A stretch of DNA of 64,000 bases from an uncultured Clostridia bacterium (GCA_947581805.1 CANPVM010000002.1:140290-204289); one strand, 5' to 3'. Counted from the first letter of the stretch, positions 1 through 27,757 are shown. The notes: generated from the letters alone by a model not told the origin. A program made the numbers and translations.

Positions 1-427
1 TTAATGTACAAGAAGATAGCATAACAATTACTTTTCCTTCTTTATTTTTTTTCATAATAGTTAAAAAATTATTCAATATAATTACTAAAGAGCGTAATGA
101 AATATTAATATCTTTATTAAATTTTTCCCATGTAATTTTTGAAAATTTTATATTCTCATACTTTCCTGCTGGTAAATGAACAATATGTGTAGGAATCTTT
201 CCTGTATTTTTTATTTCTTCGACAAATTGATTAGTTCCTTCTTCATCTAAAAAATTCCCATATATTAAAACTAATTTATCTCCTAATTTCTCTTTTAATG
301 TCACTAATTTTTCATTGTCATTCACATGGTGTGCTATGATATAGTCGTAATTTTTTGCTACTTCTGTAATTAATTGTACTCCTATGTCTGAAGATGCTCC
401 TGTAACTAATAACACCTTATTCTCCAT
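1..427 (-). CDS. Short-chain dehydrogenase/reductase (FabG-like), partial; continues beyond the window start
   Basis: The minus-strand translation from the ATG at 427 begins MENKVLLVTGASSDIG..., the Rossmann TGxxxGxG motif of SDRs. The start overlaps the stop of the MaoC-like gene by about 10 nt. Confidence 0.6.
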   Translation of the reverse strand, partial: MENKVLLVTGASSDIGVQLITEVAKNYDYIIAHHVNDNEKLVTLKEKLGDKLVLIYGNFLDEEGTNQFVEEIKNTGKIPTHIVHLPAGKYENIKFSKITWEKFNKDINISLRSLVIILNNFLTIMKKNKEGKVIVMLSSCTL

Positions 428-878
428 CTAAAACACCTACTTTCATAATTCCCCTTAATACCTTTTCTTGATTTTTATTGAATATTGAAACGTTTATTGT
501 AATTTGTTTGAAATTATCATTTATTTCTGTTACTTTTCCTTTTACTGTTAAAGGACTATCTGAAATAAATACAGGCTTTTTAAATATAACTTCTACACTA
601 TGTATTAAACTATATTTTCCCGGTAGATAAACTCCTGCTAAAGTTGATAAAAAAGATGATGTTAGCATTCCATATACTACTTTTTCTTCATATCCTTTTG
701 ATTTTGCATATGTTAAGTTGTTATGTAGTGGATTTGAATCTCCTGTTATTTCTAAGAATTTGTTCATTGTTTCTTCTGTAATTTCTACGCTAAAACTTTC
801 TTCCATTCCTACCTTTATATCTCTAAATGTGTATATTCCCGTGTGTGTGTGTGTGTGTGTGTGTGTGTACAGTATCAA
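417..878 (-). CDS. MaoC-like (hot-dog fold) dehydratase with a (Thr-His)n N-terminus encoded by a GT/AC dinucleotide repeat
   Basis: The 153-aa ORF reads ...IKVGMEESFSVEITEETMNKFLEITGDSNPLHNN..., typical of MaoC/(R)-hydratase family proteins. In this frame the only start is TTG at 878. An SD-preceded ATG at 888-886 lies in another frame. Confidence 0.6.
   Translation of the reverse strand: MILYTHTHTHTHTGIYTFRDIKVGMEESFSVEITEETMNKFLEITGDSNPLHNNLTYAKSKGYEEKVVYGMLTSSFLSTLAGVYLPGKYSLIHSVEVIFKKPVFISDSPLTVKGKVTEINDNFKQITINVSIFNKNQEKVLRGIMKVGVLDGE
841..868. repeat. (GT)14 dinucleotide microsatellite within the 5' end of the MaoC-like gene
   Basis: A perfect gt x14 tract read directly from the sequence. 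It is translated as THTHTHTHT on the minus strand. Confidence 0.9.
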
Positions 879-984
879 GGGTTTCCATTGTACTTCTTTT
901 TTCCTCCTTATTTTTTTATTTTGTATTTATTTTTTCATTCAATACTTTTTCATTACATATTTTTTTATAATGATTCATCATAGT

Positions 985-1990
985 CTTTATTAGTTATTTT
1001 CTTATAATCTTGTTTGAATCTTTTATATTCATTATCCCAAGAAGCATAATTTTCATCACCTCTATAATCTGGTAATTCATAATTTTCTTTTAAGTATTTA
1101 GCAAAGTATAATGTATATTTTGTTGCACCATAGACGTTTAGATGTGCATAATTATAAAAAAATCTGTATGATAACTAATGTTGTTTAATTTTTTCTCTAA
1201 ATTGCAATTAATAACTTTAAATCCATTTTCCTGTATAATTTTAACTGCACTATTTCATCTTTCTATTTTTCCTTCCTCAAAAATTCTTTTAGGTATTACA
1301 AATAAGACATTTATATCATTTTCTTTTATATATTTTATCAAATCACAGAGTATTTTATTACTTTCATTTTCTAGTTCAATAACATCGTTTGACCATGTAT
1401 ATTTATCTATGGAATCTATTATTGTTGTACCTTCATTAAATAGATACCCTTTATATAAGTCTGTTTTATTAGTTATACTATCTTTTGAAATGTTTTTCCA
1501 TTTATTACGATATAATAAAAAGCTATAATAAAAATTAAGATATTCTTTTTGATTTATATCTTTTTTATACTTTAATATATCATTTATGGCATCTATCTTA
1601 TTTTGGCAAAATTTCATAGTATTGTATCAGTAGTTTTCCTAATTTCTTCTGTTGTAAATGATTCTATAGTATTGGCAACTAATGCTATATCAATAACATA
1701 TAAATATGGATTTTGAGATTTTTCAATTTCTTTTATGCAGTATTTTGTTAGTGCAAATGGTTGTGTACTAGTTGAAAATAGACAAGTAGTATATCCATAT
1801 AAATTATAGGTTAACATCGTATTAAAATGTGCAAAAACATTACTACTTCCTATATACGCAACATCTATAGAAATTTTTTGGTTCTTTATAAAAATATGTA
1901 ATAAAAAATGTCTCTATCCAAAGTATATGATATACAGTAAAAATAAAATAAAAAAATTAGTAAAAATGTAATTGTTTTTATTATTTTTTT
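985..1990 (-). pseudogene. Decayed paralog of the DltD-like/SGNH-type gene at 5709-6728, with multiple frame breaks
   Basis: The fragment ORFs at 1614-1817 and 1255-1617 and the untranslated stretches at about 985-1190 and 1818-1985 align collinearly with the 5709-6728 protein. Matches include VAYIGSSNVFAHFN, YVIDIALV, FYYSFLLYRNKWKNISK and NYAHLNVYGATKYT. The breaks are not at CGG codons. Confidence 0.6.
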
Positions 1991-2009
1991 ATTTTTTCTT
2001 GGTCTCCTT

Positions 2010-3552
2010 TTAAAATTGTTTATAAATAAATGCTGTTGCATCATAACCTGCACCATAACAACCAAATATGATAATAGTGAAAATTAGTGTATATAATACT
2101 CCCCATCGAAATACAATATTTTGCTCTAATAATTTTTCTCTTACGTCTCTTCTTCTTGCTAAGAATTGCATCATAAATAAGATTATTAATGAAACAAATA
2201 ATACTGCTAAATCATAAAAATCTAATCCAATATTACTTATCATATTTAATAACATTTCTTTATTCATTAATGATTGTATGTTAATTGTAAACATATTTTT
2301 TATAATTTCTATAGCATTTGATACACTATTTGCTCTAAAGAAAATCATAGCAAAAGAAAATAACAAATAAGTTCTTATTACTTGATATAACTTATAACTA
2401 AATACTTCTGTATTAATTCCTAATTTATTATTAATCTTTTTTGATATTGGTCCGTAATATATCTTCTAAAAACATAAATATAAATTGCAATATTCCTGAA
2501 CCAATAATAAATTTATATTCTCCACCATGCCAAGCACCAATTAATATCCACATAATTAGCATTGATAGATACATTGGTATTTTCTTTGCTGCTTTTTTAC
2601 CAAATTTTGCTTTACATTTTTTTGCTAGGTTCTGCATAGCATCTGATTTTAATAATGGATAGAATATATAATCTTTAAGCCATGCCCCTAATGTAATATG
2701 CCAGTTTCTCCATAGTTCTGTAATAGTTCTTGAGAAAAATGGAAGATTAAAGTTTTCTGGCAATTTGATACCTATAATTTCAGATATTCCCATAATTACA
2801 TCAATAGAACCAGAAAAATTAGTATATAGTTGCATTACAAACGCCATGGCAGCTGCAATAATAAAGATAAATGTAAACATTTCTAAATTTCCATAAATAG
2901 CATCTACAAACATACCTAATCTTTGAGAAATTACTAATATTTTAAATAGTCCCCATAGAATTCTAATTAGTCCTCTACACAATGTATCATAATGTAGTTT
3001 GTGTCCTTCATATAATTGTTTTCCTACACTATCATAGCGAATAAATGGTCCTGATGTTAAAATTGGGAAATATGACATAAATAAAGCACACTTAAATATA
3101 TTTTTTTCTGCTTTGCAAGTACCTCGATAAACATCTACTAAGTAGCCTATCATAATTAATGAATAGTAACTAATACCTATTAATGAATTTCGTTGTACAA
3201 AGGTAAATTGATAATCTATATTTAACAAGTTATTGATATGATTTGCTGTTGCTAAAAATAAATTGGTATATTTTAAGTAAATTAGTTGTGCTAGTATAAT
3301 AATAATACCTAAAATCAAGATTTTTTTACCTTGTTTTGTATTTGTATGATTTTCTATTTTTCTTCCTAATATGTAACTTGGAACAAGAATAACTAAGGCT
3401 TGTATTACTGTACTGATATGTAGGTTATCATAAAATAAAAAGATAATACTTGAAATTAATAAGACTACCCATTGAAATTTTTTAGGCATTATAAAATAAA
3501 TGCATAATGTTATAACTACATAACATAAAAAAAATAATGATGTTAAATTCAT
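2010..3552 (-). CDS. MBOAT family membrane O-acyltransferase (DltB/AlgI-like) #2; needs a +1 shift at the in-frame CGG at 2452-2454
   Basis: The 373-aa ORF is multi-TM with MBOAT features and ends ...DILRTNIKKD* just after an in-frame CGG. Skipping the C gives ...DILGPISKK...YLLFSFAMIFFRANSV..., which runs into the 118-aa ORF carrying the conserved C-terminal FFRA motif. MBOAT#1 has the equivalent VIFRADN. Confidence 0.65.
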
Positions 3553-3553
3553 A

Positions 3554-3802
3554 TTATTTTCCCTCTATTCTGTCTAAAATGATATCTACCATTTCACCAA
3601 CGTTTTTCATTGTTGTTACTTCATTCATGTTGAATTTCATTCCAAATTCTTGCTCTACTGCTACTACTAGATTGATGTGTTCTAGGCTATCCCAATCTTC
3701 AATATCGTTTGATGTTGTTTCTTCTGTTACTACAATACTTTCATCATCAAATATATCTCTAAATACCTTATTTAATCTTTCAAATACTTCTTCTCTTTTC
3801 AT
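3554..3802 (-). CDS. Acyl/peptidyl carrier protein (DltC-like)
   Basis: The 82-aa protein has the phosphopantetheine-attachment motif DWDSLEH and sits immediately downstream of the FkbH-like gene. Confidence 0.7.
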   Translation of the reverse strand: MKREEVFERLNKVFRDIFDDESIVVTEETTSNDIEDWDSLEHINLVVAVEQEFGMKFNMNEVTTMKNVGEMVDIILDRIEGK

Positions 3803-3805
3803 TTT

Positions 3806-5587
3806 TTATTCCTCCACTTCAATTACATTATTTTTATTTGTATATCCTTTTGAGATATCTAATTTATAGGTTTTGTTTCCTTGTTCATCACAAGATATTT
3901 CTTCAAAACCTTGTAAATCATAGAAATTGTTTACCATTTTATTTTTTAAAGTTGGATAATAATAGCCATAAATTGTTTTTATATTTCTTTCTTTTGCTTT
4001 TTTTACCAACTCATCCATCATAGCAAATTCCATGTTTCTTTTTAACACTCTACAACTCATAATCCATAAATCTATATGTAGTTCATCTTCATTTTTAATG
4101 TTACCAATAACAACTGTAATAACGCCATTATCTCCAAAAATGTCTTCTAATTTTCCATATAGTTTTATATAGGTATCATCTTGATTGACTGATTCAATGT
4201 CTGCTAATGAATATCTTTTTGTTGTTAAGTTAAATTGATTACTTTTATTACTTAGTTGTGAAATTCTTTCCAAGTAAATTGGTTTAAATGTTGTGATTTC
4301 TGCTTTCATTTTTAATGAAAGTAAATAATCATCATAATTATCAAAGGTTGCCATCATTTGGCTTCTTTTGGCATTGTCTTTATACATTTCACTTTTCTTT
4401 AAGTCTTCGTTAGAAAAGTTGGTTACTTCAAAGTATCCATTATGGTCAATTATTTTTATATAGTTTTCTGGCACATCAATTTCAGGTGTTGAAAGTCCTT
4501 CTACATAGTCTTTACATATTTGTCTTTCTGCTGGGTTATCATCTACAAATACAAAACTATCTGCTCCTAAATTTAGTTCTTCTGCTATATCTTTTATATT
4601 TAGGTTTTTAGGATTCCAATTTGCTTTTATTATAATAAAGTCTTCTGGCTTTAAGGTTCCTGCTGGGTGGTTTAGGCCTGCTATTGCATTTTCATATTCA
4701 TTTTTGGAGTTGATATTTAATATAACACCTAAACTTTTATGTTCTTTTAAATAGTTTTGAAATTCTGTGTAAACTTGTCCACTTGGTACCTCTGGCCCAA
4801 TTTTCAAGTTTTCTACTCCATCATCTCCAACAATTCCTCCCCACAAAGTGTTATCTAAGTCTAATACAAAGGCTTTTTTATTTTTTCCATAAATTGATTT
4901 GATAATGTTTGCTAAGTTAAATGATAAATATGGAATGGCTGGTACTTCCATTGCGTATTTATACATATGCCAATAAAATTGATTTGACCATTTGTCTAGT
5001 CCATAACAAGATGATACATAGTTTATATCATTTATAAAGAAATTTTTGGTTTGGTTAGCATAGTCATAGAATTTTTGATTTAATCTTGTTATAAAGTTTG
5101 TTTTTCCGTGAATATCTACTGCATCTTTATTTCCTAGTAAACGATAGTATGGATATTCAAAGTTATTTTGAATGATGCTAACATTGAATTTTGAAAATAA
5201 CTTGTCCCACATTTTTTTAAATTTTTCATATTCAAAATTAAGTTTTTCTTCTACCATTTTTTCGTCATCATACATAATTGGATATTGTATAATATTTCTA
5301 TTGCTAGTGTGTATGTATATAATGTCTGGTTTAAAGTTATCTAATTCTTCGTTTCCAAACATAGCATCTTCATAAAATTTATTATATTCTGATTCATAAA
5401 ATGTAGGTTTTATGCCATAGTTTAACAAAAATAGTTCTAACATATTTTTTATTTCACTTGTGGTGGAGCCACCTAATATTGCTATGTTTTTTTCTAATAA
5501 ACCTGGTTTTAGCAATAGTTCTTTTTTTATTTTTCTTTTGTTTTTCATGATGTAATTTACATCAAATGGATATTCTAGTTTTTTCAT
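3806..5587 (-). CDS. FkbH-like domain protein (HAD-superfamily enzyme that loads a glyceryl unit onto a carrier protein)
   Basis: The 593-aa protein has the HAD motif I FVLDLDNTLWGGIVGDDGVENLKIG that is characteristic of FkbH/OzmB-type enzymes. It lies directly upstream of the ACP gene. Confidence 0.6.
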   Translation of the reverse strand: MKKLEYPFDVNYIMKNKRKIKKELLLKPGLLEKNIAILGGSTTSEIKNMLELFLLNYGIKPTFYESEYNKFYEDAMFGNEELDNFKPDIIYIHTSNRNIIQYPIMYDDEKMVEEKLNFEYEKFKKMWDKLFSKFNVSIIQNNFEYPYYRLLGNKDAVDIHGKTNFITRLNQKFYDYANQTKNFFINDINYVSSCYGLDKWSNQFYWHMYKYAMEVPAIPYLSFNLANIIKSIYGKNKKAFVLDLDNTLWGGIVGDDGVENLKIGPEVPSGQVYTEFQNYLKEHKSLGVILNINSKNEYENAIAGLNHPAGTLKPEDFIIIKANWNPKNLNIKDIAEELNLGADSFVFVDDNPAERQICKDYVEGLSTPEIDVPENYIKIIDHNGYFEVTNFSNEDLKKSEMYKDNAKRSQMMATFDNYDDYLLSLKMKAEITTFKPIYLERISQLSNKSNQFNLTTKRYSLADIESVNQDDTYIKLYGKLEDIFGDNGVITVVIGNIKNEDELHIDLWIMSCRVLKRNMEFAMMDELVKKAKERNIKTIYGYYYPTLKNKMVNNFYDLQGFEEISCDEQGNKTYKLDISKGYTNKNNVIEVEE

Positions 5588-5708
5588 TTCTATACCTCTT
5601 ATACTTTTTATATTTTTCTGTTTTATAGAAGTTTAATTTTACAATACAAAACCCTAAATAACAATATTTTGCAAAGAAAGTTGTTAAAATTATACAAATG
5701 CAGTGTTT

Positions 5709-6728
5709 TTACAATAGATTTTCAAAATCTTCTCCTATTACTTTCTCATAATTATTTTTAAATCTAATATATTCATTCTCCCATGAATTATAAAGTTCAT
5801 CATTTCTATGGTCAGGTAAATCATAATATTTTTTTAAGTATTCCGAAAAATATTTTGTATATTTTGTTGCTCCCCATACATTTAGATGTGCAGAATTGTA
5901 AAAATCTTTACTATAGTCAACTTTAAAATCTTCTAATGTATTAAAATTAATTACATCAAAACCATTTTCTTGTATAATAGATATTGCGCAATTAATACTT
6001 CCAACATTTTTAAAGACTCTACTAGGAACTACAAATAATACATTCAATTTATTTGCTTTAATATAATCAAGCAAGTCCTCTAATATTTCTTTATTTTCTT
6101 GTTTTAATCTTGTTTTTTCATTATTCCATTGATACTCATTTTGTTTTTCTACTTTATAGGTTCCTTCATCAAAAAGATATCCTTTATATAGTGTTTCATT
6201 ACCCACAATGTTTATTTTACTAATATTTTTCCATTTGTTGTGATATAGTAAAAAACTAAAATAATAGTTTATATAGTCTTCTTTTTTTAAATCTGTATAT
6301 TTTAACATACCATTAATTGCATCTATTCTGTTTTTAGAATTTTTTAAAGAGTCAATCACATTTCTTTGATACCCTTCTTTATCTTCACTAAACTCATCTC
6401 CTACTCTTGCTATATCTATTACATATAATTCAGGATTTTGATATTTTTTTGATTCTTCCAATAAATACTTAATTGCTGAAAAAGGTTGCGCATTTGTAGC
6501 TAACAAACTTACTGTAAAACCATGTAAATCATATGCTAATGGAGCATTATAGTGTGCAAGAACATTACTTGAACCTACATAAACAACGTCTATAGAATTT
6601 TTAGGTTCATCATAAAAATAGCCAACGTTTGCTTTTTCCAACCATAATACTTTGAAAACAATACTCCATAAAATGTAAAATATAATTAAAAATACTATAA
6701 ATTTAATGAATTTTATAATTTTTTTCAT
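5709..6728 (-). CDS. DltD-like/SGNH-fold extracytoplasmic acyl-transfer protein
   Basis: The 339-aa protein has an N-terminal TM anchor, a GSSN block (VVYVGSSNV) and a C-terminal D-x5-H block (DFYNSAHLNVWG). It is the terminal gene of a carrier-protein/MBOAT module. Confidence 0.45.
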   Translation of the reverse strand: MKKIIKFIKFIVFLIIFYILWSIVFKVLWLEKANVGYFYDEPKNSIDVVYVGSSNVLAHYNAPLAYDLHGFTVSLLATNAQPFSAIKYLLEESKKYQNPELYVIDIARVGDEFSEDKEGYQRNVIDSLKNSKNRIDAINGMLKYTDLKKEDYINYYFSFLLYHNKWKNISKINIVGNETLYKGYLFDEGTYKVEKQNEYQWNNEKTRLKQENKEILEDLLDYIKANKLNVLFVVPSRVFKNVGSINCAISIIQENGFDVINFNTLEDFKVDYSKDFYNSAHLNVWGATKYTKYFSEYLKKYYDLPDHRNDELYNSWENEYIRFKNNYEKVIGEDFENLL

Positions 6729-8153
6729 TTTTATTCTCCTTTAAAACTGTAGTAATGTAAACTAAATTTATGTTGTTTTATTTAATTTTGTTCTTAAAAA
6801 TATCCTTTAAAGTTTAAAGAAAAGGATGATTCTTTATTTTCCCTCAATACAGTAAACTTAAGGTTGATGGACTTTCTATATTTTTATTTCTGACAAGAAG
6901 GATTATAAACTTCTTTTAAATCAATATTTTAAAGAGCACCATAAACATTTAAAAACTATTAAGTCTTGTGATAAAAATCCTATCCAATGATATTCATTGT
7001 CCTAGTTATAATATTCCTCACCAATTTATTTACGACAACACTGGTGGCTATAGTAAATTTTTGTACAGTTTGCGGTTTTCACTTTTTTCGTAAATGATAA
7101 CCGTATTATTGAACTCCGTTGCTCTTATTGTTTCGATACTCTTACTTTAGAGAAAAATTATAAACTTTTTAATATTCATAAGTTCCATAATAATAAATAT
7201 TTTTGCTATTATCTCCTTATGTTATGGATTTATATCTTACTTAGTTAGCTATGGTATGTTTATTTTTTTATAGATGTTATCAAAAGTCTATCTTAGGCTA
7301 TAGAAATTCTGATTCTAGTTCTACATTAAATGTTCCTCTTTTTATAACTAATTTCTTACTTTTTTCCATATAATTCGTCTAAAAATTTTCAGTTATATAA
7401 ATAAATTTGCTATTAACATTATTATTTATTAGATTTTTTCCATAATTTTCTTGTAAATTTTATAATATTTATTATACATCTAATATACTACTTTAGTCAA
7501 TAAAAATATTAATTTATAATTTATATTTTTACATAATAATTATGTAGAAATAATGGTAAAAATACTACACTTTGGAAATATTGAAAAAGTTATCAAAAAA
7601 CTAACAGTAAAAATTAGGTTACTTGAGCTAAAGAATATATTGTTCAAAGAACAAAATAAGAAAGTAAAGACTATTACACTTACTTTACAAAATGAGTTAA
7701 AGGTAAAAAATTTGATTTTGAGTAAAAAATTATATACTTTGAGTTATATATTTTCTTTCACTATAGATAGACAACTACTCATAAAAAATTTCCAATTGTC
7801 TAAATTTTTAGTTTGTTTGGCATATTCTTAATAATGGTAACCATCAATATAAATCAAATTGATAAATATGATTAAAAAAATACAATATATATGCAATACA
7901 AATTTTAATAAAAAAAAAGCCCATATATCATATATATCAATGAAATACAAGCTTATTATTCTTTATAACTATTAAGATATTTATCTGAAAAATTAATTTA
8001 TCAATTCAATTATTAAAATTTTAAAAATTATCATAAGAAGTTTAAAATCTAAACATACTTTCCGATATTCCCTTAATGAACCTTTTCACAACCTCTCTTA
8101 GTTTTATCAAATTTTATATTTATAATAGAATCTTAAATTTTTTTATTTTTTAT

Positions 8154-9443
8154 CTATTCGAACCTCCACACTTTTGCCAAATTGCTTGTTTCATCTCCTT
8201 CAGCATAATTTTCTACTGCTCCTCCATTATACATAATTAGTACTAAGCTAGGATTAAAACTTTTTATATAACTTTTTAAACTCCCATTATAATATCTTAA
8301 ATCGATTATAGATAAGTACTCATTTTCTAATGCTAAAAAAGGTGATACCACATCAGCAAAACTATCTTTTATCATCAATATTTTTTTATTATTTTTTACT
8401 AGCTCATTATGTATTTCAATCAATGGTTTTTCTCCATAAGCATACGCCCCGTATTGGCTAGTAGAATAATAATTACCATATTCAATACGTGACCAATCAA
8501 TAAGAGTATTTTCAAAGCTATCTGTTTTATCAATACCTTTATTTAAGATTTTAATGTTTAATCTTGTATTAAATTTTGGTGTTATTAAGTCAAAATCTTC
8601 TGGCTCAGCATTTTTCAAGCTTACATATCTTCCATCATATCCCAAATACATTTTAGGATATATTTTAATATTATACTTATCAGGATTAATATTTTCTATA
8701 TTTAAATTTAAATTGTATGTATTATTTAAATATTTAGAAATTTCTCCAGCTACCCATAGTCCTGTTTCCGGTAACCAATGGTGATCCGTTTTATAAAACA
8801 ATGATAAATTGTCTAATTTTTTTTGTTTTATAATTTTCCTTAAATCAAGATAATCTATTTTTCCATTAATTTGCTTTAGAAATTTATTTACATTTTTATT
8901 TGTATAATCTCTATATATATTTGATGGCATCGGTTGATTTTCTGATATTTTATATGGTGCTTGTACATATAATAATGTTATATCATTTTCTTTTAGATAT
9001 TTATTAAATTCTATTATGTTATTAGCACATTTATCAACATCTTCTTCATTTTGTATTTGTGATAAATACCCATTTCCTAAATCAACCCTATCAAGTTCAT
9101 TCGAATTAGATACTAATTTATATAACATTAAATCTTTATAGATATATGATAATTCTATAAACTTTTCATATCCTAATAATTGTTCAGATGTATGTGCTTC
9201 AATTTTAGTTTTAATATCTTCTATAATTGTTTCATATTTTTTTAAGATGCTTGCTTTTTTTACAGTTTGTACTTCATCTGCTTCAAATGGAAATAACTTT
9301 TCATAATCTACATTTATACTTGAATTATCTTGCTCTTTTTTTATTATTTTTTTTATGATTGTAATACCTGATAATATCATCATTGCAATCAATACTAAAA
9401 TTATAAAAAATGTAGTAAAATTCTCTATTTTATTCTGTTTCAT
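8154..9443 (-). CDS. DHHW family protein (AlgJ/PatB/DltD-like extracytoplasmic O-acyltransferase partner)
   Basis: The 429-aa protein has an N-terminal TM and the diagnostic motif KTDHHWLPETG. It lies immediately downstream of an MBOAT gene. Confidence 0.65.
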   Translation of the reverse strand: MKQNKIENFTTFFIILVLIAMMILSGITIIKKIIKKEQDNSSINVDYEKLFPFEADEVQTVKKASILKKYETIIEDIKTKIEAHTSEQLLGYEKFIELSYIYKDLMLYKLVSNSNELDRVDLGNGYLSQIQNEEDVDKCANNIIEFNKYLKENDITLLYVQAPYKISENQPMPSNIYRDYTNKNVNKFLKQINGKIDYLDLRKIIKQKKLDNLSLFYKTDHHWLPETGLWVAGEISKYLNNTYNLNLNIENINPDKYNIKIYPKMYLGYDGRYVSLKNAEPEDFDLITPKFNTRLNIKILNKGIDKTDSFENTLIDWSRIEYGNYYSTSQYGAYAYGEKPLIEIHNELVKNNKKILMIKDSFADVVSPFLALENEYLSIIDLRYYNGSLKSYIKSFNPSLVLIMYNGGAVENYAEGDETSNLAKVWRFE

Positions 9444-9460
9444 AATTATAGTCTCCCTTT

Positions 9461-20905: not shown

Positions 20906-22105
20906 CTAACTTTTTCCGATAACTTTTTTTACCCTTGCTTTAATCTTTTTTAATGTTCGATTTGTTTTAATTTTTATCTTAACTTTCTTCTTTAAGTTTG
21001 GTTCTGGAAAAAAATTTTTGCTCAATTCATTATATGACATTTTATCAATATTCTTAAAAACATTTTTTCTTGATTCTGTTATTTCAACTGAATTATTCAT
21101 ACACATATTTCCATTGAAAGCATCATTGGATGTAACTTCTACATATTCTACATTATCTTTAATCAATTCAAATAGTTTTTTCCCTTTATTTGAATTAATT
21201 AGAATCATAGATGTTCCTTTGTCACAATCTAATTTTGGATCTATTTTTTCAATACCCCAAAAATCCGCTAATGTTATATCAGCCACTCTTGGCAATCCTT
21301 TAAATTTACACTCATAGCAAGAAGGTCTCATAAATGCATTGTATTGTAAATATCCAATCCAATAAGAATCTAAATATCTAGTTCCTATATAATTTTTTCC
21401 ATTTTCAAAATCAACTTTAATTGAAAAATTATGCCATCCATAAGTTTTATTTTTAAATTTGATTTTTTTTATTTTAGAGTGATATTTTTCTTGTAAATTT
21501 AGAATATATTTTTTAAAAATTTTAGGTGAATTAACCCCTCTACAAATAAAATCACAAGTATATAAATTTTCATATTCTTTATTTGATAAGTAATTATATA
21601 ATCCAGCTATTTGACATGGACATCCACAAACTAAAACTTTTTCGCCTTGTTCCAATAATTTTTTTATCCTTTTAAAATTATCATTCATATCACTTTGTAA
21701 GTATTTAGAACTTCTTAAATTATCAATATCTTCTATATTAGAAGATACATAATGTTCTACTAACCACTCTTTATTATATATTGCCCCACAAACATATCCA
21801 TTTTGTTTATATATTGCCCCTGCAAGTTCTGAAAAAATTCCTCCTGAAGTACTATCTAATCTAACATGGTTATTCTTACTCCACGCTGCTATTACTGTTG
21901 GTTTCTTATAATTATCATTTATTTTGGTATTATTGTTAATTGGACAAACTTTATTGCAAAGACCACATTGTATGCATTTATTCATATCAACTTTTGGATA
22001 TTTAAAGCCTTCATTATCTTCTACCATTTTTATTGCTTTGACCGGACATATATTGTAACAAGCACTACAAGCCATGCAATTTTTCTTATCTTCTATTTTA
22101 ATCAT
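20906..22105 (-). CDS. Coenzyme F420 hydrogenase/dehydrogenase beta-subunit-like FeS protein (a frequent partner of pyruvyl transferases)
   Basis: It has N-terminal 2x[4Fe-4S] ferredoxin motifs ([24 protein letters not shown]) followed by a FrhB-like domain. Confidence 0.55.
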
Positions 22106-23192: not shown

Positions 23193-25076
23193 TTACCCCT
23201 TTTTTATTTTTTGTATTAATTTCCAATATAACATTCCAAAATAGTAATTTATATTTTTTGCATAAATTATTTTATTTAAAAAGCCTATTTTCCATATACT
23301 CTTTCTAAAATCTTTTATAAAAATTTTTGGATGAACAAAATAATATGATATTTTTTTTGCATTTGCTACGTCAAGGATTTCATAGTCAAGAAACTTTAAA
23401 TTTCCAAATGTTTCTAATATTTTTTTATCAGGTTTATCTAAACTTAATGTAAAATTATTACTACAAACTTCTGAATTAAATTCAATGTACTCTTTGCAAC
23501 TGGCATTATTAATGTCTTTTACAAAATCAATGGCACCTTCTTGTATATTAGTTGATAATTCTAGTTCATGAGAATTTTTATATTCATAATCGTAAAATTC
23601 TACATTTTCTTTTGAATTATTAAAACATTTTACAGATCCATGTCTTGCTAAGAATAAAAATTCAAATATTCCATTATTTCTATTTATGTTTGAGCGTATT
23701 TCTTTTTTATAATCTTTATCAAATAAAAAGCCTTTCATTCTTGATGTATTTTGATTATATATTAAACCTACATAATATCCATATATATCATTATCTAAGA
23801 TTCTTGATAATGACATTTGCATATTTCCGCCCCATCCTATATCAACTACAGCTAGTTTTCCTCTAAAATCAACACTGTCTAAATATTTTTTCATACATGA
23901 ATATTCTTTTTTAGAATTATTAATAATTCTATCAAATATTGCTTTCATAAAATCAATAAAATCTTCATTTGTTTTCATAAATTCTATACTATATTCTTTT
24001 TCTAAGTCTAATTTATATTGCTTTATTTCCTTAGATAAATCAATGTCATCTAATCCAATTCTTTTTATGAACTTATCTAAACGTATTTTTTTTACTCCAT
24101 ACATTGAAGTATATATTTCATTTATTTCTTTGCATTGCCATAATGAAGGTACTATAGTTGACCTTCTTGAAGCATAAAGATAATAACTTTTTATATTAGT
24201 ATTATTTATCACATCAAAAACTTTCTTTATTATGTATCCATCTCTAGCCATAAAATAAACTTTATTTATTTTTTCTTTTTGTAAATTATCTATTAACCAC
24301 TTAGTAAATCCATACAAAATTGGTCCAAAACATACATATCCCCAATCATATAATTTTTTCTCTTTATAGATTAAATTGTTTTTTATAAAACTACTTAATA
24401 CATTTGAACTTATATTGTTTTTTATTGTCGCATTGTAATAACAATTATTATCATTTTTAATATAATGAATTGCTTCTATACCTATGGATTTTGGATTTAG
24501 GTAATCACTTTTATAACTATCACCAATATGAATTATTTCATTCTTGTTTATCTTTAACTCTTCTAAAACTTTAAAAAATAAATTTCCACTTGATTTTGTA
24601 ACTTTAAAATCAGAGGATAAAAAAAGCTTATAATATTTTATATTGTTTTTATCTAAAATTCTTTCAATTACAGATTTATCTAAATACATATCTGATGTTA
24701 AAATTACTTTTTTTCCGTTTTTATTGCAATATTCTAAAATATCAATCATTTCATTATTTATTTGACAAATATTTAATTCTGCTTCTATTTCAATCTTTTT
24801 TAATCTATCGCATACTTCTGTAGGATATTCTTTTTCTAAGGATGAATATATATCATTAAATTCTATTTCTTCACTCTCAGATGATTTTCTAGCTTTTATT
24901 TCACTATTCACTCTTTTAGTTAAAAAATCAAAAATTTTATCTTTAAACTTACTATTATATTTTTTTTGTACAATAGAATATACATCATGTGGATGAATAC
25001 AATTTCTTTTTATTAGTGTATCAAAAATATCAAAAGAAATATATTCATATTCTTTTAGCTTACCAATATCTAGCAT
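23193..25076 (-). CDS. Large HAD-superfamily hydrolase-like protein, associated with polysaccharide loci
   Basis: The 627-aa protein has an N-terminal HAD motif I (ISFDIFDTLIKRN). The rest has no family I recognise. Confidence 0.4.
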   Translation of the reverse strand: MLDIGKLKEYEYISFDIFDTLIKRNCIHPHDVYSIVQKKYNSKFKDKIFDFLTKRVNSEIKARKSSESEEIEFNDIYSSLEKEYPTEVCDRLKKIEIEAELNICQINNEMIDILEYCNKNGKKVILTSDMYLDKSVIERILDKNNIKYYKLFLSSDFKVTKSSGNLFFKVLEELKINKNEIIHIGDSYKSDYLNPKSIGIEAIHYIKNDNNCYYNATIKNNISSNVLSSFIKNNLIYKEKKLYDWGYVCFGPILYGFTKWLIDNLQKEKINKVYFMARDGYIIKKVFDVINNTNIKSYYLYASRRSTIVPSLWQCKEINEIYTSMYGVKKIRLDKFIKRIGLDDIDLSKEIKQYKLDLEKEYSIEFMKTNEDFIDFMKAIFDRIINNSKKEYSCMKKYLDSVDFRGKLAVVDIGWGGNMQMSLSRILDNDIYGYYVGLIYNQNTSRMKGFLFDKDYKKEIRSNINRNNGIFEFLFLARHGSVKCFNNSKENVEFYDYEYKNSHELELSTNIQEGAIDFVKDINNASCKEYIEFNSEVCSNNFTLSLDKPDKKILETFGNLKFLDYEILDVANAKKISYYFVHPKIFIKDFRKSIWKIGFLNKIIYAKNINYYFGMLYWKLIQKIKKG

Positions 25077-25094: not shown

Positions 25095-26864
25095 CTAATT
25101 CTTCTTTAAAATATTGATTATCTTCTTAGCTTTATCTTGGCCTATTGTTCCTTTTATAATATTTTTACTTTTATTTACAATTTCATCTTTTAGTGTTCGT
25201 GGACTACTAAAATCATAAAAATCAAAAATTGTTTGAGCATCATCTTTCATCTCAGTAAATACTTCAAAAAATACTGGCTTTTCATCTTGTATTTTCATGA
25301 ATTTTTCCACATTAGCCTCAAATGATTCTTTATCATTTGCTGATAAATATGTAAAATTATTTTCTTCTACCCATCCTTTTGCTTTTGTATTATGTCTTGC
25401 TGATGTATGTAGCTCTCCTGATTTATTTAAACATGTCTTATTATAGTAAAACTCAGAACCTCCATGATTATTTATCATTAAAATATGTACATTCTTTTTT
25501 ATGCTATTTATTCTTAATGCATTCATATCATAAAAGAAAGCTAAATCCCCTATTACAAGAAAACTCTCCTTGTTACTAACTGTTGCTTGACCTAAGAATG
25601 TAGATAAAGGTCCATCAATTCCATAAGTGCCTATATTTGCATATGTTTTTATATTGTTATTTAATTTAAAATAATTAGCTATTCTAATACTATCATTAAC
25701 ACTTAAATGTAAAATTGAATTCGATGGCATTTTTTGAACAACATTTTTTATTGCATAAATATGTGAAAATCTAAATTCAGGCATTTCTACTGAATCTGAG
25801 TATTTTTTAAAATTATTATAATATTCCATACTATTCTTATTCTTTGAATTTTTATTAAAATATTCAAAGAAATATTCTGGTTGACATTCAAATATTGTTT
25901 TTAAACTCTTGAACGTATCAACTACTTGTCCATCTTCTTCTATACTCCAATGTTCAAATTTTCCATTTAATTTTCTAAATTGCTCTTTTATTGAAGAGAA
26001 AATTTGTCCCCCAAAAGTTATCAATACATCTGGTAGTAGCTCCTTAACTATATTACTATTTGAATATTTAGGATCAAAACATGTTATAGTATTTATTCCT
26101 TCTTCTATCTGGACATTTGACATATGATCTACTACTATAGTTGCATTATAGTTTTTAAAGAAATCTTTTATTTCTTTTTCTAATTTTGGAGTAACGTTAC
26201 TTTTTTGTCCACATACAACTAGGACTTTTTTGCAATTTTGTAATTTTTTTACTTTTTCATCCCATTTTGATTTATCTTCGCACAAACTAATTCTTTCTAT
26301 TTTTTTTACTTTTGGAAGTTCTTTTACATTAAAGGACATATTATAATCATAGGTTGGAACATTTATATGAATTGGCCCTTTTCTACCATTATGATTTAAT
26401 TCCAAAAATGCTTCATTTATTAGTCTTTGGCAATAGATTTCATCATCTACTGTATTTATAATTGGTAGATTAACTGATTTTTGTACATGCCTATCAAACA
26501 TACCTACTTGATTTATCATTTGATCTTCCCATTGACCCAGCATTCTAAAATCTCTGTCACTTGTTAATACTATTATTGGAACTCTTTGATAAAATGCTTC
26601 TGCAACAGGTGGCCAATAATTACATGATGCTGTAGAAGCTGTACAAGATATTAAAACTGGTTCATTTAATTCTTGTGCTAAGCCCAATGCAAAATATCCC
26701 GCACTCCTTTCATCTACAACGGAATAACATTTAAAGAAATCATCTTCTTCAACAGAATGAACAAAAGGTACATTTCTTGATCCTGCCGACAGTACACAAT
26801 GTTTAATTCCATACTCTTTTAATAATGCTATTAAAATTTGATAACTTTTTATTTCTGTATACAT
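25095..26864 (-). CDS. MenD-family thiamine-diphosphate enzyme (SEPHCHC-synthase-like paralog) embedded in the glycan locus
   Basis: Blocks CVLSAGSRNVPFV, DERSAGYFALGLAQ, VPIIVLTSDRDFRMLGQWEDQMINQ and GPIHINVPTYD align with the MenD motifs PGSRSTPL, DERSAGFFALGLAK, LTADRP...QAINQ and GPVHVNVP. A ThDP GD..FYDMN-type motif (IGDLAFFYDMNAL) is present. Start taken as the ATG at 26864 with AAGGAG 7 nt upstream. Confidence 0.6.
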   Translation of the reverse strand: MYTEIKSYQILIALLKEYGIKHCVLSAGSRNVPFVHSVEEDDFFKCYSVVDERSAGYFALGLAQELNEPVLISCTASTASCNYWPPVAEAFYQRVPIIVLTSDRDFRMLGQWEDQMINQVGMFDRHVQKSVNLPIINTVDDEIYCQRLINEAFLELNHNGRKGPIHINVPTYDYNMSFNVKELPKVKKIERISLCEDKSKWDEKVKKLQNCKKVLVVCGQKSNVTPKLEKEIKDFFKNYNATIVVDHMSNVQIEEGINTITCFDPKYSNSNIVKELLPDVLITFGGQIFSSIKEQFRKLNGKFEHWSIEEDGQVVDTFKSLKTIFECQPEYFFEYFNKNSKNKNSMEYYNNFKKYSDSVEMPEFRFSHIYAIKNVVQKMPSNSILHLSVNDSIRIANYFKLNNNIKTYANIGTYGIDGPLSTFLGQATVSNKESFLVIGDLAFFYDMNALRINSIKKNVHILMINNHGGSEFYYNKTCLNKSGELHTSARHNTKAKGWVEENNFTYLSANDKESFEANVEKFMKIQDEKPVFFEVFTEMKDDAQTIFDFYDFSSPRTLKDEIVNKSKNIIKGTIGQDKAKKIINILKKN

Positions 26865-26878
26865 ATATATTCTCCTTT

Positions 26879-27757
26879 TTATATATTTATATGATTTCCC
26901 GCATTGCAATGTAAGATTTCACCTGAAATACATTTACTTGCATCGCTCAATAAAAATAAAGTAACTTCTGCTATTTCCTCTGGTAAAAAACATCTACCTG
27001 AACTTTCATCTGTTGCCAAATTATTGCCATTTGTTCCAGCATAATCCTTTGTCATATCAGATATTGTTACACCAGGTGCTATACCATTTACTCTAATTCC
27101 ACTTTTGTAATATTTTTTTGCCAATGCCTGTATTAAAGAATTTAGGGATGCTTTTGTTAATCTATATGGTAAATCAGATGCACATGAACCGCCTTGCGAA
27201 CTAATTATTATTAATTCAGATTCTCCCTCATTTTCTTTATTCTCTATTTTTTTCTCAATAAATGCTTTTGATAAAAAATATGTTCCCCTAAGATTAATAT
27301 CAAATTGTTTATCAAAACTTTCTGTTGTTACGTTTTCGATACTTCCCTCATATAAGTTTATTCCTGCATTATTGATAAGAGCATTTATCACACCATTTTT
27401 AAATTTTTTGCAACATTGCTTTATAAACAAATTAGCATTATCTACATCACTTATATCAAATACTATATATGAACAATTTTTACCAAGTTCCTTACATGCT
27501 TTAATAAGTTTATTTTCATCTCTACCCGAAATTATAACATTAGCTCCTTCTTGAATACATTTTTTTGCCATATAATAGCCTAATCCTCGTCCTCCACCTG
27601 TAATTACAATATTTTTATTTTTTAATATTTCTCCATAATTAACTTGGGAGATTTTAACTTCTACATAATTTTCAGGTTGACTGGCTAAAATAAATTTTGC
27701 AATTTTTTTACAGAACTTTCTAACCCCCCCCCATTTATTTTGCTCCTTTCTATACAT
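26879..27757 (-). CDS. SDR-family oxidoreductase #3 with a G9 tract in its 5' region, overlapping the 3' end of pyruvyl transferase #2
   Basis: It has the motif NIVITGGGRGLGYYMAKK. Its N-terminal extension is homologous to SDR #1 and #2 (KISQVNYGEIL versus KINQIHSEKML). Codons W-G-G-V are tgg ggg ggg gtt. Confidence 0.65.
   Translation of the reverse strand: MYRKEQNKWGGVRKFCKKIAKFILASQPENYVEVKISQVNYGEILKNKNIVITGGGRGLGYYMAKKCIQEGANVIISGRDENKLIKACKELGKNCSYIVFDISDVDNANLFIKQCCKKFKNGVINALINNAGINLYEGSIENVTTESFDKQFDINLRGTYFLSKAFIEKKIENKENEGESELIIISSQGGSCASDLPYRLTKASLNSLIQALAKKYYKSGIRVNGIAPGVTISDMTKDYAGTNGNNLATDESSGRCFLPEEIAEVTLFLLSDASKCISGEILHCNAGNHINI

Follow-up and report, generated by a model that had tools for sequence, protein, structure and literature searches.

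A putative carrier-protein-fed MBOAT-SGNH pathway for hydroxy-acid acylation of a surface glycan beside a polysaccharide locus of an uncultured Clostridia bacterium

A stretch of 64,000 nucleotides from an uncultured Clostridia bacterium (GCA_947581805.1 CANPVM010000002.1:140290-204289, referred to as the window) carries a module of genes for an FkbH-type loader, an acyl carrier protein (ACP), an MBOAT acyltransferase, a membrane-anchored SGNH-fold protein, a MaoC-type dehydratase and a FabG-like short-chain dehydrogenase/reductase (SDR). In the simplest reading, the module is classed as a carrier-protein-fed MBOAT-SGNH pathway, Dlt-like on its donor side and PatA-like on its membrane side. 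With a probability of roughly 0.6, it O-acylates a surface glycan with a three-carbon hydroxy-acid from glycolysis. The acceptor is probably the polysaccharide built by the adjoining locus, or another envelope polymer. These genes are not grouped by chance; essentially this set is found again in other genomes.

An earlier note made from the sequence alone had placed six genes of a glyceryl-charged, Dlt-like module on the minus strand, and all six were found there at, or very near, the claimed coordinates. The first is the membrane-anchored SGNH-fold protein (339 amino acids, 5709-6728), which is identified by its fold and matches no Pfam or NCBIfam model. It is followed by the loader (593 amino acids, 3806-5587; TIGR01686, TIGR01681 and FkbH_N), the ACP with its DSL site (82 amino acids, 3554-3802; PF00550) and the MBOAT (2010-3552; PF03062), which comprises about 513 amino acids if read through. 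The MaoC-type (R)-hydratase/dehydratase spans 417-886 when counted from the ATG at 886 (PF01575; the Pfam-matching open reading frame (ORF) is 417-878), and the first 142 residues of the SDR are encoded at 1-427, as recognised by tblastn to the SDR of a related locus (L004). Absent from the earlier inventory were the remains of a second SGNH paralogue (968-1955), a surplus C at position 2454 within the MBOAT gene, an (AC)14 tract and a second MBOAT with an AlgX/DHHW-type SGNH partner (together 8154-10942), all likewise on the minus strand.

With 250.7 bits (cut-off 146.65), the loader matches the curated profile hidden Markov model TIGR01686 ('FkbH domain') over model positions 3-320 of 323; it also matches the HAD-IIIC model TIGR01681 and Pfam FkbH_N. 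The proposed FkbH identity is thus borne out, with no assignment to an unrelated HAD family. The protein contains the motif DLDNTLWGG, and its AlphaFold model (predicted local distance difference test score, pLDDT, 92) consists of an SGNH-like N-terminal domain, a HAD phosphatase and a GNAT-fold C-terminal domain. The phosphatase motifs (DxDxT, S/T, K, DD) are intact. Across 39 homologues, the most distant at 31% identity, little or no variation is seen in these motifs or in Cys512, which is part of an S-C-R motif in the GNAT-fold domain. FkbH-family enzymes carry a glyceryl-S-enzyme intermediate on a catalytic cysteine in the C-terminal domain. The intact phosphatase active site suggests a doubly phosphorylated donor such as 1,3-bisphosphoglycerate. 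The FkbH gene is intact and shows a ratio of non-synonymous to synonymous substitution rates (dN/dS) of 0.04.

The carrier protein gene is located 3 nt downstream of the FkbH gene. Its 82-amino-acid product matches PF00550 and generic ACP models; no match of this protein to the DltC model was obtained. The sole solved relative of the loader is BF1531 of Bacteroides fragilis (PDB 3slr), a functionally uncharacterised structural-genomics entry without assigned function. The BF1531/FkbH_N family comprises 13,338 clusters at 50% identity (E-value up to 0.001). In a search of representative proteins, a natural fusion of the type FkbH_N-FkbH-ACP-thioesterase was found (P0375, 1,027 amino acids). A giant protein from the same search (P0349, 2,554 amino acids) embeds the FkbH domain among radical-SAM/SPASM domains. 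Both fusions indicate other uses of the loader family.

On the membrane side, the 339-amino-acid protein is modelled (pLDDT 94) as an N-terminal membrane helix followed by an SGNH hydrolase domain. Its structural neighbours include DltD, OatA-C and PatB, and Ser54 and His281 are invariant. A sequence kinship to DltD was considered and rejected: the protein has no Pfam, NCBIfam or PDB match, even with a 61-sequence profile, and only the fold relates the two. The profile searches proposed in the earlier note succeeded for FkbH, PP-binding and MBOAT but gave no match of this protein to a DltD-type model. The paralogue at 968-1955 is a pseudogene recognised by tblastn, with two frame changes (hits in frames -2, -1 and -3) and an in-frame TGA. 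The same state of decay is found in three metagenome copies of the locus (L001-L003), and an intact equivalent of 341-347 amino acids is present in four further variants (L006, L090, L091 and L093).

The two pieces of the MBOAT gene, 2431-3552 and 2010-2366, are collinear from end to end with a 508-amino-acid orthologue, with a single frame change at 2454. PF03062 is matched, and the histidine motifs WHIT (WRNWHIT) and WHGG (GAWHGGEY) are located in the 373-amino-acid zero-frame ORF. The DltB model TIGR04091 scores 130.8 bits for this first ORF and 126.2 bits for the intact orthologue, against a cut-off of 375. The MBOAT ends in FIYKQF and the second MBOAT of the window (9461-10942) in FIYFNF, both conforming to FxYxxF, which forms the C-terminus of 49 of 50 FkbH-adjacent MBOATs. 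The module thus shows the sequence features of the MBOAT-SGNH pair class, namely the MBOAT histidines, FxYxxF and, in relatives, an SGNH-fold partner with the Ser/His residues beside the MBOAT, as it does those of the FkbH family with its model match, phosphatase motifs and adjacent carrier protein. The second MBOAT and its AlgX/DHHW-type partner (8154-9443), both recognised by Pfam, lie 1.4 kb upstream of the module. This MBOAT is 39-45% identical to MBOATs of pairs located directly upstream of FkbH-ACP elsewhere and, by analogy with these, is possibly an alternative outlet for the same carrier protein.

To survey the neighbourhood in other genomes, a scan with a diverse FkbH alignment was performed on one genome per species, and the 80 best-scoring of at least 598 candidate loci were analysed. 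They stem from Lachnospiraceae, Oscillospiraceae, Ruminococcus, Odoribacter, Synergistaceae and Endomicrobia as well as from Helicobacter, Desulfovibrio, Methylomonas, Acidobacteriota and one cyanobacterium. The module is also found in cultured bacteria, namely Eisenbergiella tayi DSM 26961 (L019) and an Odoribacter splanchnicus isolate (L023). In 71 of the 80 loci, a carrier protein is encoded at most 3.5 kb away from FkbH, and an MBOAT is found within the fetched flanks of 10 kb in 53 (32 of the 45 loci with flanks of at least 6 kb on both sides), so that the co-occurrence of loader, carrier protein and MBOAT proposed as a check holds across genomes. Typically, the MBOAT gene is immediately adjacent to FkbH and co-oriented with it, across phyla. 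MaoC (16/80) and SDR (13/80) are recurring members as well; both are present in 11 loci, and in several they lie between the ACP and MBOAT genes. An SGNH or AlgX partner could be recognised beside the MBOAT in 28 loci, which is a lower bound because single-sequence searches miss members of the fast-evolving SGNH family. The partner is of the AlgX/DHHW type in 16 loci, and in about 15 the MBOAT-AlgX/DHHW pair lies directly upstream of FkbH-ACP.

Unbiased clustering of the neighbouring ORFs ranked MBOAT as the top family (51 loci); the true commonest neighbour is the carrier protein, because antisense ORFs masked it in about 28 loci in this clustering. The next families are glycosyltransferases, UDP-glucose dehydrogenase, an epimerase and a deacetylase. 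The top clusters inspected included neither a ketosynthase or other polyketide family nor an adenylating one, and no conserved cytoplasmic acyltransferase or FabH-like partner emerged from the clustering. A polyketide context was rejected on the same grounds, the giant P0349 likewise carrying no polyketide synthase (PKS) domains. Two layouts recur, FkbH-ACP-(MaoC-SDR)-MBOAT-SGNH and MBOAT-AlgX/DHHW-FkbH-ACP, and the window contains both kinds of MBOAT pair. The intact version in L004, which stems from a different rabbit-gut genome, has the order FkbH-ACP-SGNH-MaoC-SDR-MBOAT with four further SGNH paralogues behind it, and adjoins UDP-glucose dehydrogenase and glycosyltransferase genes. The five tandem or near-tandem paralogues of L004 (341-347 amino acids; 5171-6214 and 8944-13133 of that locus) surround a single MBOAT, which suggests several acceptor positions or polymers.

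From these components, the following pathway is proposed. The FkbH-type enzyme would take 1,3-bisphosphoglycerate, its HAD domain would remove the 3-phosphate, and the glyceryl group would pass, probably via Cys512 of the GNAT-fold domain, onto the phosphopantetheine arm of the neighbouring carrier protein. Expression of MaoC and the FabG-like SDR may allow glyceryl-ACP to be tailored further: the dehydratase would convert 2,3-dihydroxypropanoyl-ACP to the enol of pyruvoyl-ACP, and the resulting enol-pyruvoyl/pyruvoyl-ACP would be reduced to lactyl-ACP. At the cytoplasmic face, the MBOAT would then receive the acyl group from the carrier protein and hand it over to the tyrosine in its C-terminal FIYKQF at the outer face. 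There, the membrane-anchored SGNH protein would accept it on Ser54 and esterify a hydroxyl of the polymer. The inferred donor is thus glyceryl-ACP, replaced by lactyl-ACP if MaoC and SDR are active; the substrate, the tailoring by MaoC and SDR, the use of the carrier protein by the MBOAT and the acceptor are deduced from domain identities, conserved catalytic residues, motifs and the gene neighbourhood. D-lactate-ACP is tabulated as a product of FkbH loading modules (PMC7901079), and in the acyl-tyrosine shuttle, PatA and Dlt/DltX move the acyl group via the tyrosine of FxYxxF to the serine of the SGNH partner (PMC12148441).

In the MBOAT gene, the extra C is located directly after Leu366 (TTA or CTT), giving TTA/CTT-C-GGR and, in the window, TTA-C-GGA; the corresponding sequence of the intact L012 orthologue is TTA GGA CCA. 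The extra C is no assembly artefact, since it occurs in three independent metagenome copies (L001-L003) and in four other locus variants (L006, L090, L091 and L093). Five alleles that are 0.7-1.0 synonymous substitutions per site (dS) apart all retain it at the same codon. The dN/dS is 0.07-0.15 ahead of the shift, 0.08-0.28 past it and 0.00-0.05 in the first 38 post-shift codons, in which the deeper comparisons show 12-17 synonymous against 0-3 non-synonymous changes. The +1 frame is open for 143-147 codons up to FIYxxF, and the zero frame stops after 4-7 codons. The nearest full-length MBOAT homologues (78-81% identity, 513 amino acids) are not truncated.

The extra C also creates a zero-frame CGG, a codon that is absent from all 12,668 other codons of the window. 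In each of the shift-bearing loci L001, L006, L090, L091 and L093, CGG occurs exactly once in the long ORFs, presumably at the shift site, and it is absent from the long ORFs of the related loci without shift (L010-L012). As judged from this sequence pattern, the frame change is a candidate for programmed +1 ribosomal frameshifting at a 'hungry' CGG codon; the P-site tRNA-Leu seems poorly suited to re-pair in the +1 frame. The classic bacterial case of programmed frameshifting is prfB, and we know of few bacterial recoding signals comparable to a conserved +1 shift at an unused CGG codon. Transfer RNA genes, including one for tRNA-Arg(CCG), were sought across the window and none were found. 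Owing to the conserved C, the purifying selection, the open +1 frame and the rare CGG, the MBOAT is treated as functional. The initial reading as a pseudogene was set aside in view of the retention of the same extra C in five diverged alleles and of the strong purifying selection downstream of it. Two other explanations were discarded: a -1 slip on the A6 run before the zero-frame stop, as the orthologue alignment places the frame change five codons upstream at TTA-C-GGA, and a split MBOAT with a separately translated DltX-like C-terminal piece, which is unlikely because the 38 codons from the shift to the first possible internal start are the most conserved.

MaoC and the SDR are separate, HadB-like and FabG-like proteins, both from families that act on ACP thioesters. 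The SDR start overlaps the MaoC stop by 11 nt, and the gene runs off the window; the complete SDR of L001 (244 amino acids) is FabG-like, with sub-threshold matches to 3-oxoacyl-ACP reductases. Between the ribosome-binding site and ATG of MaoC (886) and its conserved YTFRDIKVG lies the (AC)14 tract (841-868), the sole long dinucleotide repeat in the 64 kb. MaoC orthologues elsewhere begin with MNxYKFEDI and have no repeat. The 14 AC units put the ATG out of frame with MaoC (OFF); the repeat number is 8 in L001 and at least 10 in L002, and both measured states (14 and 8) leave the ATG out of frame. The output of the module in this strain is probably switchable via this length-variable tract. 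With MaoC OFF, the strain would therefore be expected, speculatively, to transfer glyceroyl rather than lactoyl groups.

In other lineages, among them Endomicrobia, Synergistaceae and Helicobacter, homopolymeric G or C tracts of 8-16 nt were observed at or inside the genes for FkbH, MBOAT, MaoC, ACP or an adjoining acetyltransferase (L014 at 12401; L028 at 231; L032 at 10027 and 13610; L087 at 10115, 12197 and 13301; L006 at 886). Together, the (AC)n and homopolymer tracts constitute a signature of phase-variable surface decoration, which fits a role at a surface glycan.

Compared with known systems, the module works like Dlt yet fails every test of Dlt membership. In both, a carrier protein is loaded in the cytoplasm, an MBOAT acts across the membrane, and an anchored SGNH protein delivers the acyl group via an acyl-tyrosine shuttle (PMC12148441). 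The loader of Dlt, however, is an adenylating ligase, whereas that of the module is an FkbH-type phosphatase/acyltransferase that would act on a glycolytic acyl phosphate. No DltA-type AMP-binding protein was found among the 29 window ORFs (417-37697) scanned against Pfam, and no DltX-like small ORF with FxYxxF was found in the window at a length of at least 60 amino acids, shorter ORFs not being searched; FxYxxF is instead fused to the MBOAT. With no DltC or DltD model match and a DltB model score far below the cut-off, the 'Dlt-like' labels of the earlier note hold by role but not by family. Further differences are the proposed optional on-carrier tailoring by MaoC and SDR and the nature of the acyl group, predicted to be a hydroxy-acid rather than an amino acid, which would therefore not add positive charge.

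Similarly, the module shares with PatA/PatB, AlgI/AlgJ/AlgX and WssH/WssI an MBOAT of about 470-510 amino acids with a C-terminal FxYxxF and a separate extracytoplasmic SGNH-type partner, and the second pair of the window, which matches Pfam ALGX and DHHW, is of the AlgI/AlgJ/AlgX type. These systems perform the O-acetylation of peptidoglycan, alginate and cellulose. In contrast to the module, where a dedicated carrier protein and its loader are the best-conserved neighbours, they use acetyl-CoA and no carrier protein (PMC12148441). Polyketide FkbH proteins acting with a stand-alone ACP (methoxymalonyl-ACP in FK520 and bafilomycin; the tetronates tetromadurin and tetronomycin) are about 360 amino acids long, without the N-terminal domain, and what they produce undergoes either oxidation and methylation or condensation by a FabH-like enzyme. 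Genes for such steps are absent here, and the loader has glycan genes and an MBOAT as neighbours. The bryostatin loading module of BryA, with the order DH-KR-FkbH-ACP (DH, dehydratase; KR, ketoreductase), supplies a D-lactate starter. Such trans-acyltransferase PKS loading modules likewise combine FkbH, dehydratase and ketoreductase to convert a glycerate-derived thioester to lactyl-ACP (net reaction, PMC7901079), but as domains of one megasynthase that feed a ketosynthase, in contrast to the separate MaoC- and FabG-type proteins that would feed a membrane transferase here.

Several observations weigh against the proposed acylation pathway. The use of the carrier protein by the MBOAT is inferred from gene linkage, and no MBOAT is found within 10 kb in 27 of the 80 loci. 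MaoC and SDR are missing from most loci, including the close variant L006-L009, which has neither. PatA-type MBOATs with a fused shuttle motif are reported to use acyl-CoA, acetyl-CoA in the case of PatA, in pathways without a carrier protein (PMC12148441). Dlt is the only MBOAT-SGNH pathway known to use one, the others being said to lack it (PMC12148441). In the window, one SGNH paralogue is a pseudogene, MaoC is not in frame with its ATG, and without recoding the MBOAT remains interrupted. As judged from its conservation, Cys512 is a candidate equivalent of the glyceryl-carrying cysteine of characterised FkbH or OzmB, and the substrate of the BF1531-like subfamily could differ from a glycerate unit. 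To our knowledge, no lactoyl or glyceroyl esters have been reported on Firmicute glycans.

The alternative that survives best, although unlikely, is that glyceryl-ACP is made for cytoplasmic use, for instance for the N- or O-acylation of a nucleotide sugar or a lipid-linked repeat unit, or for a small molecule, and that MBOAT and SGNH are ordinary acetyl-CoA-dependent O-acetyltransferases sharing the locus. The donor of PatA and the 27 loci without MBOAT are consistent with this explanation, as is the frequent presence of unrelated acetyltransferases in polysaccharide loci, of which the hexapeptide and Acyl_transf_3 genes of the window are instances. The neighbourhood data speak against it: only the carrier protein is a commoner FkbH neighbour than the MBOAT (51-53 of 80 loci), which is usually adjacent and co-oriented, MaoC and SDR sit between ACP and MBOAT in several loci, and the clustering revealed no conserved cytoplasmic acyltransferase, ketosynthase or FabH-like partner.

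Less probable still is that the module is a decaying, inactive remnant in this strain. The frame change at 2454, the broken paralogue at 968-1955 and the ATG at 886 out of frame with MaoC could be taken as stages of decay, and three metagenome copies show the same state. Against this, the extra C has persisted at the same codon over the divergence of five alleles, selection remains purifying up to the shift and strongest in the 38 codons behind it, and the +1 frame is open up to FIYxxF; furthermore, FkbH, ACP and the first SGNH gene are intact, FkbH under marked constraint, and the (AC)n length varies between copies in a switch-like manner. An equally improbable variant, in which the BF1531-like loader uses another acyl phosphate or a phosphorylated hydroxy-acid and the group is neither glyceroyl nor lactoyl, draws on the additional N-terminal SGNH-like domain of this subfamily, which the polyketide FkbH proteins of about 360 amino acids do not have, on the uncharacterised function of BF1531 and on the fusions of other members to radical-SAM or thioesterase domains, but is opposed by the match over 318 of 323 FkbH model positions, well over the cut-off, by a phosphatase site whose integrity would only make sense with a doubly phosphorylated donor, and by a 3-hydroxyacyl dehydratase and ketoreductase that suit a 2,3-dihydroxyacyl thioester.

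The carrier-protein-dependent acylation of a surface glycan is therefore preferred, and every check proposed in the earlier note that was run supports its interpretation. In the open-access full-text literature, nothing was found that ties FkbH to MBOAT or to glycan acylation, and the pathway is apparently undescribed. The fuller proposition is more tentative and falls somewhat short of even odds, namely that the module represents a widespread, undescribed glycan decoration which, in this lineage, is toggled between glyceroyl and lactoyl by the (AC)n tract and depends on an MBOAT made by programmed +1 frameshifting.

The window has a G+C content of about 25%, and nearly all of its genes are on the minus strand. 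Sortase, SpoIIIAE and bile-salt hydrolase genes are encoded in it, and the nearest relatives of its genes are found in rabbit-gut metagenome-assembled genomes labelled uncultured Clostridia or Bacilli, which identifies its source as a spore-forming Firmicute of the gut. The acylation module is located at the downstream end of a Wzy-type polysaccharide locus (12616-33031, Pfam matches), past some transposase-like fragments, which are short plus-strand ORFs (11110-12070) between the main polysaccharide locus and the acylation genes. Directly beyond the SDR, L001 has genes for an integrase and a TnpB-like protein. The polysaccharide locus encodes a priming sugar transferase, glycosyltransferases, an EpsG polymerase, two pyruvyl transferases, three SDRs, a thiamine-diphosphate enzyme, and the hexapeptide and Acyl_transf_3 genes. 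The thiamine-diphosphate enzyme (25095-26909), a HAD-domain protein of 627 amino acids (23193-25076) and an FrhB-like iron-sulfur protein (20906-22105) constitute, together with the two pyruvyl transferases, an unusual tailoring set for a polysaccharide locus.

Three poly-G tracts are found on the coding strand of the locus. A G8 tract at 15556-15563 lies in frame in the 5' end of an SDR gene, a second G8 tract (17235-17242) divides the Acyl_transf_3 gene into the ORFs 17213-17569 and 16506-17258, and a G9 tract (27724-27732) directly follows the ATG of another SDR, which it leaves out of frame (MGGG-stop). Such tracts are remarkable at 25% G+C and are likely phase-variation switches of the polysaccharide locus.

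The 1.4-kb gap between the two MBOAT systems (6729-8153) has no convincing gene, and neither this gap nor 10943-12615 showed protein similarity to ORFs of the 80 loci. An Rfam scan of 1-13000 gave no credible match, the sole hit being an S15 leader below threshold. Promoter-like sites in 1-8200 are no commoner than in shuffled sequences, and terminator-like sites were not found there; one strong promoter-like site on the minus strand (7500-7471) is located inside the gap.

MBOAT-SGNH pathways govern surface charge, resistance to lysozyme and antimicrobial peptides, phage adsorption and immune recognition. If the proposed pathway is correct, it would represent a second carrier-protein-fed branch of these pathways, loaded directly from glycolysis, and would add glyceroyl or lactoyl esters as a new class of glycan modification. 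The conserved +1 shift at an otherwise unused CGG codon would, if true, be an unusual bacterial recoding signal. The pathway would also provide a function for the large BF1531/FkbH_N protein family and account for unannotated genes found in numerous polysaccharide loci of gut bacteria.

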